A DNA stretch of 33,048 bases. Origin: Chiloscyllium plagiosum. Taxonomy: Eukaryota. The DNA is taken from the NCBI RefSeq assembly GCF_004010195.1, contig NC_057756.1:9724336-9757383 (forward strand), in the 5' to 3' direction. This document shows, piece by piece, positions 21,405 through 26,476 of the stretch. Under the pieces are notes generated by a model, which made no database searches, was not told where the DNA came from, and saw only the letters and a program-made list of their open reading frames with translations. How positions within the stretch are numbered: the stretch's first letter is position 1; the number at the start of each line of letters is the position of its first letter. The position numbers were made by a program, and so were the translations under genes.

Positions 21405-21564
21405 CTTTTAGAAAATGGAAAGGCTCATTATGGGTGCATTTACCGGTTCGACCAGCCCACCCCCCGTCAGGCTCCAGTTATTACCAGGTTATATTGTCCA
21501 CTCTCCAACAGACAGCTGGACTCAAACCAGAGTCCGCAACAGAGTCTTTTGTTCAAAAAGCCAC

Positions 21565-22121
21565 ACAGTCTGTAGGCAGTCAGTCCATGTGGACCTTGTA
21601 CCAATTCCTTCTTTGGAAATAGAACCAGTCTGACTCGAGGCTGGCATACAGACAGACTCTAACCTCACACCTTTAAGGCTTATGCCCGAAACCTCCACCC
21701 TCCTGCTCCTCGGATGCTGCCTGACCTGCTGTGCTTTTCCTGCACCACTCTCTCGACTCTGATCTCCAGTATCTGCCGTCCTCACTCTCTCCAACTTTAA
21801 TGCATTGTCTGAGCTGAGGTCTCACCGTTTATTTCAATAAAACCTTAAATTATCTCAGACATGTGACTTGAAAGAGGTTCGGGGATTTCCACATTAATGA
21901 ACTAAAAGCTGCATCAGCATTCTAAGTGATTAAAGACTAAACAGTGATCTCGGTTTGTTCAATACATCACATCAGTTATACAACGCTGTGATCTTTTGCT
22001 ATAAATTCTGTGTCCCATGATCCTGCCCCACTAGCTGCCTGACAGAGAAGCAGCGCTCCGAAAGCTACTGCTTCCAAATAAACCTGTTGGACTGTAACCT
22101 GGTGCTGTATGATTTTTAACT
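21565..22121 (-). mobile_element. Dispersed repeat homologous to 8036-8508, with a nested Penelope-terminus fragment at ~21677-21793
   Basis: Reverse-complement match to 8036-8508. The nested piece reads GGCTTATGCCCGAAAC..GATGCTGCCTGACCTGCTG..CTCACTCTCTCC. Confidence 0.7.
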
Positions 22122-23258
22122 TCCTCTGCACTGTCCCCCCAATCAGACCCTCCCAGCACAGGGACAGCACGGGGTTAGATACAGGGTAAAGCTCTCTCTA
22201 CACTGTCCCCCCCATCAAACACTCCCAGGACAGGGACAGCACGGGGTTAGATACAGGGTAAAGCTCCCTCTGCACTGTCCCCACCCATCAAACTCTCGCA
22301 GGACGGGGACAGCACGGGGTTAGATACAGGGTAAAGCTTCCTCTACACTGTCCCCCCAATCAGACCCTCCCAGCACAGGGACAGCACGGGGTTAGATACA
22401 GGGTAAAGCTCCATCTACACTGTCCCCCCCATCAAACACTCCCAGCACAGGGACAGCACGGGGTTAGATACAGGGTAAAGCTCCTCTACACTGACCCCCA
22501 ATCAGACCCTCCCAGCACAGGGACAGCACGGGGTTAGATACAGGGTAAAGCTCCATCTACACTGTCCCCCCCATCAAACACTCCCAGGACAGGGACAGCA
22601 CAGGGTTAGATACAGAGTAAAGCTCCCTCGACACTATCCCCATCAAACACTCCCAGGACAGGGACAGCACGGGGTTAGATACAAAGTAAAGCTCTCTCTA
22701 CACTGTCCCCCATCAAATGGTCGAGGTCAGGGACAACATGGGGTTAGATACAGAGTAAAGCTTTCTGTACACTGTCCCACCATCAAACATTCCCAGGAGG
22801 GATGGCACAGGGTTAGATACAGAGTAAAGCTCCCTTTACACTGTCCCCCCATCAAACACTCCCAGGACAGGGACAGCACTGGGTTAGATACAAAGTAAAG
22901 CTCTCTCTACACTGTCCCCCATCAAACACTCCCAGGAAAGGGACAGCACGGGGTCAGATACAGAGTAAAGCTCCCTCTACACTGTCCCCTATCAAACACT
23001 CCCAGGACAAGGACAACACGGGGTCAGATACAGAGTAAAGCTCCCTCTATACTATCCCCCATCAAACACTCCCAGGACAGGGACAGCACAGGGTTAGATA
23101 TAGAGTAAAGCTCCCTCTACACTGTCCCCCATCAAACACTCTCAGGACGCAGACAGATCGTTGTTAGATATAGAGTAAAGCTCCCTCTACACTGTCCCCA
23201 TCAAACACTCCCAGTACAGGGACAGCACGGGGTTAGATACAGAGTAAAGCTCCCTCTA

Positions 23259-23476
23259 GATGGAAATGTGTTGCTGGAAAAGCGCAGCAGGTCAGGCAGC
23301 ATCTAGGGAACAGGAGAATCGACGTTTCGGGCATTAGCCCTTCCTCATTCCTGAAGAAGGGCTAATGCCCGAAACGTCGATTCTCCTGTTCCCTAGATGC
23401 TGCCTGACCTGCTGCGCTTTTCCAGCAACACATTTCCAGCTCTGATCTCCAGCATCTGCAGACTTCACTTTCTCCT
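23259..23476 (+). mobile_element. Penelope-terminus insertion: perfect 83-bp inverted repeat with a 14-bp TSD
   Basis: Arms at 23261-23343 and 23356-23438 with a 12-nt spacer. TSD TAAAGCTCCCTCTA at 23245-23258 and 23477-23490. Confidence 0.9.
23347..23382 (+). ncRNA. Minimal type I hammerhead ribozyme motif
   Basis: ATTC-CTGAAGA-aGGGC-taat-GCCC-GAAAC-GTC-GATT: intact CUGANGA and GAAA, stem II, palindromic ACGT in place of stem III, GUC cleavage triplet, weak stem I. Confidence 0.7.
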
Positions 23477-24171
23477 TAAAGCTCCCTCTACACTGTCCCC
23501 ATCAAACACTCCCAGGACAGGGACAGCACGCGGTTAGATACAGAGTAAAGCTCCCTCTGCACTGTCCCCCATCAAACACTCCCAGGACAGGGACAGCACG
23601 GGGTTAGATACAGAGTAACGCTCCCTCTACACTGTCCCCTATCAGACCCTCCCAGGACAGGGACAGCACGGGGTTAGGTACAGAGTAAAGCTCCCTCTAC
23701 ACTGTCCCCCATCAAACACTCCCAGGACAGGGACAGCACGGGGTTAGATACAGAGTAAAGCTCTCTCCACATTGTCCCCCATCAAACACTCCCAGGACAG
23801 GGACAGCACGCGGTTAGATACAGAGTAAAGCTCCCTCTGCACTGTCCCCCATCAAACACTCCCAGGACAGGGACAGCACGGGGTTAGATACAGAGTAAAG
23901 CTCCCTCTACACTGTCCCCCATCAAACACTCCCAGGACGCGGACAGCACGGGGTTAGATACAAAGTAAAGCTCTCTCCACATTGTCCCCCATCAAACACT
24001 CCCAGGACAGGGACTGCATGGGGTTATATATAGAGTAAAGCTCCCTCTACACTGTCCCCCATCAAACCCTCCCAGGACAGGGACAGCACAGGGTTAGATA
24101 TAGAGTAAAGCTCCCTCTACACTGTCCCCCATCAAACACTCTCAGGACGCAGATAGCACGTGGTTAGATAT

Positions 24172-26476
24172 AGAGTAAAGCTCACTCTACACTGTCCTCC
24201 ATCAAACACTCTCAGGACGCAGATAGCACGTGGTTAGATATAGAGTAAAGCTCTCTCTACACTGTCCCCATCAAACCCTCCCAGGACAGGGACAGCATGG
24301 GGTTAGATACAGAGAAAAGGTGATTGAAATATTTCGGATTCTTAAGGGGCTGGACAGGGTCAATGCTGAGCGGGTATTACCCCCCTCCCCATGGGGAGAG
24401 GCTAGGACCCAGAGTGCCCCGCCTCAGAATAAAGGGGCACCAATTTCAGACAGAGATGGGGAGGGAGAGGTTGGTGGGTCTTTGGAATTCCTTACCAGAG
24501 AGAGCTGTGGGGGGTGGGGGCAGCGTCCTTGTGTATATTGAAGGCCGAGAGAGATTCCCAATCAATCGGGGAATCATTGGAAAGTGGTCATGAGGAACGT
24601 TGGATCAGCCACAATCCCGTGGAAGGGGAGAGCAGGCTCGATGGGCAGAATGGACTTCTCCTGATCCTATTTCCTGCGGCGTTGTGGGTCCCTCTACAAT
24701 TTCTCCCCATCGCTGTGCACAGTACGTCCCTCATTCCAACGCGCCCTCTGCTGTCCTGATAGTGAGGCCAACACGACGATGACATTACAAGGACTGCTTT
24801 ATTGCTACGTGCTTACAAATGAACATGCCACAGAAAGTAAAGACACTATATACACACAGTGGCATTCCGTGTGCAGTCCGGTCTCGCTGCCTGGTGAGGA
24901 ATGCCAGATCTCGGAACACTTACGCACACCAACAGCAGTGGAACTAGGAATAGAACTCACTTGAGAATAGTTTGCAACAGTCACTTAGAAACGTTGTGTA
25001 TCATTAATGCTTACAGGTTAGACGGAGGATCCGCACAGGGATACTGCTGTCCAGCTCAGAGGTTAAAGTCTTACAAAAGCTGCCAAGTGTCTGAACATCC
25101 AATCCATGAGGAGGCCATTCAGCCCCTCTTCCCCCCCAACCATCTTGCCTAGCTTGGCTCCATTCAGAGGCTCACTGATGATGGGACCCAGTATGGTGAC
25201 GAAACATCTGAAAGCGAACCTTCCTGCTCCGCAAGCACGCCAACGTCCAGGCTGGCTCATTTTGGAAAAGCAGCCCCTCCTCCAACTCTCCCTCGCCCCC
25301 TTCAGGGACTGGTATCCACCTGCTGTGAGGATGCCCACAGCCGAATAGCACCGTTACCACTAACCGTGGGAGGCTGTGAATGGGTGGCTGACCATGTGAG
25401 CCAGCCCACCGGGGTTTTGGGCACAGGGCACAGGATCTATTCTCTCACCAACCCTATAGGACTGTGCTTCTCTGCCTCTCCCTTCACCCTCAGCCCCCTG
25501 TCATCTCCTTATCCCTCTCTTTTTCTCTAATGAGAGAGCAGGCCTATGGTCCTCTGGGACACGGGGAAGACTTTTTGCAAAAGACATCCTAAGGAGGTGA
25601 CGAGGGGAGAGAAGGGGGGAGTCGCTTTCCCGTTAGCGGAACTCCGGGAAGAGTTTGAACGTTCTTGCGATTTTTGAGAAGATGTTTCGTCGCTCAGGGT
25701 TGTGGGTACAAGCTGGCAGTCTTACGCTCTGACTGGTGAGGTAACCGAGCGTGGAGACAGAATGGTCTGAGAACAAACATGCCAGCACAGCGGGCAACCT
25801 TACAACCTGCTCTCGGAGTCACTCTTGGAGATCATATTGGCACCAGGAGTGTGTGTGGGGGTGGAGGGGGGGACAGAGACGGGGCACATTCTGATGAAAC
25901 AAATTGTCTTCCCCCCCTCTTCCTGCCCCTCGCCCCCCTCTCCAAATTCACCCGGTGGTCCGCTCAATGGTTTGTCTGCTCAGTTTGGTGGAGAGGTTTT
26001 GTTGGCGATGGATTGGTGGGATGAGGTTGTGGTTTCCGTGAGGTGGGAAGGATTGGGGTGTTGGGGGAAGGGGGCGCGAAGGAGTCAGGGGGACGCGCCG
26101 CACTACCATATCACGGAGTGCGAGGTGGAGGTCTCGGAGTCCGAGATGGCGGAGATGGTGCGCTTGAGTTTCCCAGACTGCCTTCCTGATGCCAACCTCC
26201 CAGTCGGGCAACCGACGTGGGCCAGGAGGCTGAGCACCTCTCGGCGGAACTTGACCCCGATGAAGGCGTAGAGGAGGGGGTTCAGGCAGGAGTGGACCAG
26301 GCCCAGGCTCTGGGTGACCGTGCGGCTGATGTCCAGGACGTTGAGGCCGGAGCAGTCGGGCTGGACGGCGCCCAGGGACTGGAGGGTGTCGACGAAGAGC
26401 ACGGCGTTGTAGGGCAACCAGCAGACGATGAAGACCACCACCAGGGCAACCACCACCTTGAGGGTCTTCTGCCTCT
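24172..26476. repeat. Tandem segmental duplication, copy B
   Basis: Matches 18112-20728. Lacks the 312-bp segment at junction 25420/25421. Confidence 0.95.
24798..24803 (-). terminator. Candidate polyadenylation signal of CXCR3-like copy B
   Basis: Minus-strand AATAAA, homologous to 18738-18743. Confidence 0.5.

Follow-up and report, generated by a model that had tools for sequence, protein, structure and literature searches.

One first coding exon is probably shared by two whole-receptor CXCR3-like exons in the bamboo shark Chiloscyllium plagiosum

How can an intact chemokine receptor exon be expressed when it carries no usable start codon? This question is raised by a 33,048-nt stretch of the genome of Chiloscyllium plagiosum (contig NC_057756.1, positions 9,724,336 to 9,757,383; hereafter the window, within which all features are numbered). 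Two intact CXCR3-like coding exons, namely, copy B (27161-26103) and copy A (21404-20355), were identified on the minus strand by direct reading. We conclude that the locus is very probably one CXCR3-like transcription unit, in which a single exon 1 of 14 codons is spliced to B, or past B to A, and that RNA processing, rather than separate promoters, is likely to decide which receptor is made. A preliminary description of the window had proposed such a shared upstream exon, and the proposal is largely supported: one genomic exon with a phase-0 donor exists, and it is joined to B in two sequencing runs and to A in the run of a relative.

Both receptor exons start in phase 0 at AG acceptors, B at 27161 and A at 21404, as had been described. 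The in-frame TAA in front of the acceptor of A (21410-21408) was likewise confirmed; the earliest in-frame ATG of this copy is residue 83 (21158), past transmembrane helix 2 (TM2). In copy B, an in-frame TGA lies upstream at 27197-27195. Hallmarks of chemokine receptors include the DRY motif, CWxP, NPxxY and cysteines in the N-terminus and extracellular loop 3 (ECL3). DRYLAIV, CWLP and NPLLY were present in both copies together with the cysteines (Cys30/Cys281 in A, Cys32/Cys284 in B), and the 7tm_1 domain was detected in both products at 231.8 bits for A and 220.1 bits for B (Pfam cut-off 30.5). A and B were identical at 275 of 349 aligned residues. Copy B equals the C. plagiosum database protein after the first three residues of that protein, and the genome annotation gives both receptors false, patched starts (P0001, P0124). 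In a protein search of the genome assembly, the two receptor copies in the window were the only ones found.

Exon 1 was located using a degenerate pattern built from the leader of Chiloscyllium punctatum, which was run over the 3.56 Gb assembly with the reversed sequence as control. The genome gave a single match, which lies on the unplaced contig C91448; the reversed control gave none. The match spans 14 codons, MDNPTEQSLFESTS, with a phase-0 GT directly after them, and the 381 bp surrounding it are single-copy in the assembly. An AT-rich box lies upstream, where several words may correspond to sites that we take to be of the AP-1, E-box and ETS types. Scanning ten related leaders over the window together with 80 kb of flanking sequence, in which gaps are numerous, gave only background scores; exon 1 itself had a best match of 25/42 nt there. 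The overlap of C91448 with the region comprised satellite matches only, and the contig was not placed. Two satellite families, of 53 bp (8665-8826, 14541-17405 and 27452-27879) and of 70 bp (18112-18259, 22122-24319 and 32681-33048), border three of the larger gaps of the window as well as the gap of the exon 1 contig; satellites beside gaps probably explain why exon 1 is unplaced. Some 40 kb upstream of B lies a GC-rich stretch (L010:3245-3900), possibly the promoter of the next gene; it would bound the location of exon 1.

The junctions were read from assembled contigs, one per run, of the runs X9 (organism C, study P4), X1 (organism A, study P1) and X5 (organism B, study P2). Of the runs, X9 matches the window best (0.94 of words), and X5 comes from a related organism, not from this species. 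The X9 and X1 contigs exit exon 1 at its donor and continue with 30/30 letters of 27160-27131, thereby joining exon 1 to B in two of the four runs compared with exon 1 (X9, X1, X11 and X13). In one of the four runs compared with A (X9, X5, X10 and X1), the X5 contig covers 21069-21405 and then carries 28 letters that match exon 1 at 26/28. Judging from the way contigs overlap, the 30-letter overlap of X5 with exon 1 is the size that a fork to two acceptors would leave. The exon 1-to-B contigs of X9 and X1 both cover exactly the same 31 letters of exon 1 (L015:1491-1521). A-type sequence was present in X9, X5 and X10; the X10 contig continues through the A acceptor into the intron and looks like DNA. 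The donor that had been expected in common at 27161 and 21404 was thus found at both acceptors (X9 and X1 for B, X5 for A), but the A join is missing from X9.

The orthologous locus in other sharks was approached using protein records. Relatives were taken from the best 120 of 523 matches, and leaders were counted in the 10 other species with full records of both receptor types, leaving aside Rhincodon (represented only by an A fragment), Pristiophorus and the rays (a single type detected) and the two patched models of this genome. Five of the ten (C. punctatum, Hemiscyllium, Mustelus, Heterodontus and Heptranchias) carry an identical 14-residue leader on A and B, filed as isoforms of one gene under consecutive or near-consecutive accessions; their A and B records part where the window exons begin. 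In Heterodontus, three further matches extend the part common to A and B to 17 residues. In the other five species the leader is found on one product only, namely, on B in Carcharodon, Scyliorhinus torazame, S. canicula and Stegostoma and on A in Cetorhinus, and the leaderless partner begins with an internal Met or with unrelated patched sequence. Two different leaders on A and B were found in none of the ten. Between species, 3-11 of the 14 leader residues are identical. This distribution is what one shared exon would predict. A search with the A-type N-terminus returned five proteins, all among the earlier matches. Two further B isoforms of Heptranchias (P0132, P0134) begin differently or with a leader shortened by three residues, which may point to additional donors or first exons in this species.

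The following mechanism is proposed. The 3' coding exon would have been duplicated without a promoter before the sampled shark orders split, and the choice of acceptor and polyadenylation (polyA) site would select the receptor. B would be made by default, being proximal, with a longer and stronger pyrimidine tract and its own polyA signal in use. A would be made when the polymerase reads past the polyA signal of B and B is skipped as part of the intron.

Several points weigh against a single unit. The A contig of X9 ends at 21406, including the acceptor AG, without exon 1 letters, and the B contig of that run has 31 exon-side letters, one above a clean A/B fork, which suggests that the X9 graph has no fork to A; graph cleaning or filtering, or other donors into A in that sample, could produce this pattern. 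The joins to B and to A come from different runs and organisms, and no one run gave both. All junction evidence consists of assembled contigs, a single one from each run, and that these runs are RNA is either a guess or unrecorded; among those carrying the sequence, none is registered as RNA. X11 and X13 gave nothing on exon 1 (about 2% of X13, raw single-cell reads) and X1 gave no cover of the 5' part of A, neither of which was counted as absence. Exon 1 is unplaced, so that its position upstream of B is presumed, and the database isoforms are automated models.

One rival arrangement is that of two genes in practice: exon 1 would serve B, A would be produced mainly from another donor or its own promoter, for example through an exon ending in AG within B, its 3' untranslated region (UTR) or the repeats, and splicing of exon 1 to A would be a minor product of read-through. 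The start of the X9 A contig at AG instead of in exon 1 would fit such an arrangement, as would donors ending in AG at 21670, 21725, 23408 and 25319, and neighbouring receptor genes are known to share 5' exons by read-through, often at a minor level, according to passages of PMC7055050. However, A has no usable ATG of its own, a second leader is absent from all ten species, and the leaderless models are patched in unrelated ways. Exon 1 supplies the only upstream letters on the X5 A contig, and the A exon is intact in 11 other species. We therefore regard two separate genes as improbable, and a common exon 1 as the preferred account.

Still less credit is given to a separate exon 1 copy for each receptor, kept identical by conversion and with the second copy collapsed or lost in assembly. 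Conversion is indeed active at the locus, and the assembly has gaps and leaves exon 1 unplaced; nevertheless, the assembly contains one exon 1 copy, 21405-26102 contains no gap, both products are isoforms of a single gene in five annotations, and in five others the leader belongs to one product alone. It is very unlikely that copy A, as a relic lacking a promoter or a duplicate created by the assembly, yields no protein. Its 3' 2.6 kb are almost identical to those of B and end at a run of N, and the X10 depth over TM6 to the tail (24.8) is less than half of that over TM3-4 (62.5). Assembly error could account for the tail only, not for the exon: the A-specific blocks share 94-97% identity with A of two relatives and belong to an old clade, they occur in X9, X5 and X10, and the frame is intact in all records. 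The preliminary suggestion that A might be an orphan is disfavoured by this A-type sequence in transcript-type runs and by the intact exon in the 11 other species.

The age of the arrangement was examined using trees of 49 hand-chosen rows, in which mammalian CXCR3 and chimaera were not included; the block trees used 12 rows fewer. From Heptranchias to Chiloscyllium, the A-type receptors fall into a single clade (100/100), and the second exon is therefore older than the sampled shark orders. Among the best 120 of 523 database matches, those closest to A and B are CXCR3-like, and the pair groups with CXCR3 rather than with CXCR5 or other chemokine receptors. All chondrichthyan rows join the cxcr3.2 side in the whole-protein tree with midpoint root (99/98); the tree of TM3-4 and TM6-7 agrees (98), and that of the divergent blocks gives no resolution. 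A and B group together in every tree, not one with each bony-fish type, with a support of 89 in the divergent blocks. This grouping would fit a shark duplication, and old conversion could be another source.

Within species, A and B are 58-71% identical from the N-terminus to TM2 and 46-59% over ECL2, TM5 and intracellular loop 3 (ICL3), against 79-100% over TM3-4 and 77-99% over TM6-7 (8 pairs). The divergent blocks sort by paralogue with 1 change (0/500 shuffles as low). This does not hold for TM3-4 and TM6-7 (8 changes; 482 and 491 of 500), whose block tree sorts largely by lineage. These patterns point to recurrent conversion, which would be strongest in bamboo sharks, Mustelus and Heptranchias and weak in Carcharodon. 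Such conversion would keep the two receptors similar in TM6-7 and in TM3-4, which includes the DRY motif and ICL2, and leave the N-terminus, TM1-2, ECL2, TM5 and ICL3 divergent. In chemokine receptors generally, the blocks that differ here hold the ligand contacts and the homogenised ones hold G-protein coupling. Because the differing blocks carry the ligand contacts, the A and B products are predicted to differ in ligand preference around a common signalling core.

The tail of the window A copy requires separate consideration. Counted from NPLLY, the tail has 44-46 residues in 12 A-type records (11 other species) and 59-60 in all 13 B-type rows; the B tail is long and Ser/Thr-rich, and the A tail is short in most sharks. 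The window A tail has 59 residues and is B-like, and unlike all relatives this copy carries both the tail and the 3' UTR of B. Over the 2.6 kb 3' block, which extends to the N gap, A and B differ by 6 substitutions and 314 gap columns, mostly one 311-bp stretch. The A-side AATAAA at 18743 sits in the block copied from B, whose own candidate signal is at 24803. Recent conversion is the probable source, with an assembly join as the lesser yet substantial alternative. In favour of conversion, the X9, X10 and X1 contigs run unbroken over the divergence point, and the idea of a simple mis-join is weakened accordingly; the N gap at the block end and the X10 depths given above favour a join. Also on the side of conversion, X5 has a loose end at the divergence point that reads like a short tail, and a pattern search for the short A-type tail in this assembly gave nothing above background (9 matches against 6 in the reversed control, none at the locus).

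Two further observations concern this UTR. The 311 bp at 19362-19672 are found only in the UTR copy of A and are unique genome-wide apart from a simple repeat; they were either lost from the UTR of B or represent an allele. One X10 contig joins 20343 to 18819 (or 26091 to 24879) just after the stop codon, thereby skipping most of the 3' UTR, with two-letter microhomology at the join and without GT-AG ends; this is likely a deletion allele of 1.2-1.5 kb.

Genes with alternative last exons, such as CALCA (calcitonin/CGRP), the IgM/IgD heavy chain and Drosophila lola and mod(mdg4), have one or more common 5' exons from which splice and polyA choice picks the 3' module, and some of the modules arose by duplication. 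The shark locus differs from these in that the module is 96% of a G-protein-coupled receptor (GPCR) and that the modules swap sequence by block-wise conversion. The splicing design is known; here it would be applied to whole receptors.

Known receptor systems resemble the locus in part. Tandem CXCR3-like genes with a short first coding exon and one long seven-transmembrane (7TM) exon also occur as teleost cxcr3.1, cxcr3.2 and cxcr3.3; however, the teleost paralogues have unrelated N-termini (six species, by eye), as separate first exons predict, whereas the shark pair has one leader. Linked CXCR3a/CXCR3b loci of vertebrates are treated in passages of PMC4052464 and PMC4690017, and those of PMC4052464 do not mention shark, exon, intron or splicing. 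In human CXCR3-A, CXCR3-B and CXCR3-alt, splicing at the start of the long exon alters the receptor made from one CXCR3 gene (PMC9252580, in part); those variants have their 7TM exon in common and are distinguished by the N-terminus or an internal deletion, whereas in the shark the whole 7TM exon is swapped. Similar in layout are olfactory receptor genes with 5' UTR exons in common with a neighbouring gene, reported at 7 loci in human and 7 in mouse, e.g. OR51E2/OR51C1P (passages of PMC7055050). There, as in the shark, one upstream exon is spliced to either of two neighbouring GPCR coding exons, but the olfactory exon is non-coding and borrowed from the neighbour gene, whereas the shark exon 1 is coding, provides both receptors with their only start codon and is conserved across shark orders. 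Conversion between tandem chemokine receptors is described for CXCR1/CXCR2 and CCR2/CCR5 (PMC4052464, PMC8877049); these pairs are partly homogenised like shark A and B, but are separate genes.

In the literature listings and abstracts searched, no description of a shared-exon CXCR3 arrangement in sharks was found, although the arrangement is implicit in public automated annotation. If correct, it would represent growth of a receptor family inside one gene, leaving A and B without separate promoter control, in six shark orders among the available records. Counts of shark CXCR3 genes flip between one and two. Should the shared UTR be real, 3'-end single-cell data would be unable to separate A from B, and an atlas of the bamboo shark marks a T-cell subset by a 'cxcr3-like' gene (passages of PMC11372145). 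The system allows a direct test of RNA processing as a means of setting lymphocyte chemokine responsiveness. More speculatively, and in our view doubtfully, one promoter may have served two CXCR3 receptors since the origin of sharks, with lymphocytes switching between them by regulated splice and polyA choice, much as B cells do with IgM/IgD, so that chemokine specificity would change under the same promoter while conversion maintained a matching signalling core in both.

Table 1. Positions of the features at the two-receptor locus
Feature	Coordinates	Strand	Basis or remark
Exon 1, coding part	G000:C91448:9420-9379	-	GT donor 9378-9377; 14 codons
Exon B, proximal receptor exon	26103..27161	-	352 codons + stop; 366 amino acids with exon 1
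Exon A, distal receptor exon	20355..21404	-	349 codons + stop; 363 amino acids with exon 1
Copy B acceptor, long T-rich tract + AG (27163-27162)	27162..27181	-	sequence; exon 1 join here in X9 and X1 contigs
Unique sequence at intron end, with copy A acceptor AG (21406-21405) and in-frame TAA (21410-21408)	21405..21546	-	sequence; X5 join
TM3-TM4 block homogenised with B	20925..21104	-	178/180 nt identical
TM6-TM7, C-terminal tail, 3' UTR (AATAAA 18743) and flank, near-identical to 24172-26448 of B	18112..20700	-	
3' UTR of B; candidate polyA signal AATAAA 24803-24798	24780..26102	-	X9 and X1 contigs span coding exon into shared UTR
Dispersed-repeat remnant	21547..22121	.	match search of 21547-21620 and sequence reading
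70-bp satellite, 31 copies, split by palindromic insert with 90-bp arms at 23258-23441	22122..24319	.	
3' part of intron 1, up to window end; exon 1 not inside	27162..33048	-	
Assembly gap (N), end point of duplicated 3' block	17406..18111	.	

The interval between the receptor exons (21405-26102) contains no N gap. The unique stretch that had been described upstream of copy A is present, but its length is about 142 bp (21405-21546) and not about 160 bp. The repeat remnant, the satellite of about 2.2 kb (22122-24319) and the 3' UTR of B with AATAAA at 24803 were recovered as described, and the repeat that begins at about 21547 gave 40 other scored matches for the searched part, 21547-21620. The earlier statement that the non-satellite parts showed no phase-0 ATG-donor mini-exon went too far: on paper, 66 candidates were found in 21405-26102, 27 of which start outside 22122-24319. 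All are weak, the best donor (25395) fitting 4/7 consensus positions. The true exon 1 donor likewise fits 4/7, and absence of a mini-exon is therefore not arguable from sequence alone.

None of six flanking open reading frames (ORFs) that were tried gave a Pfam match. Broken ORFs at 1971-5746 on the plus strand read like what we take to be gag, integrase and RNase H of a Gypsy-type long terminal repeat retrotransposon, and ORFs at 9617-10424 on the minus strand presumably represent the GIY-YIG endonuclease region of a Penelope-type element. The palindrome at 23258-23441 has 90-nt arms that are 98% complementary around a 4-nt loop, and its arm resembles a short repeat elsewhere in the window.

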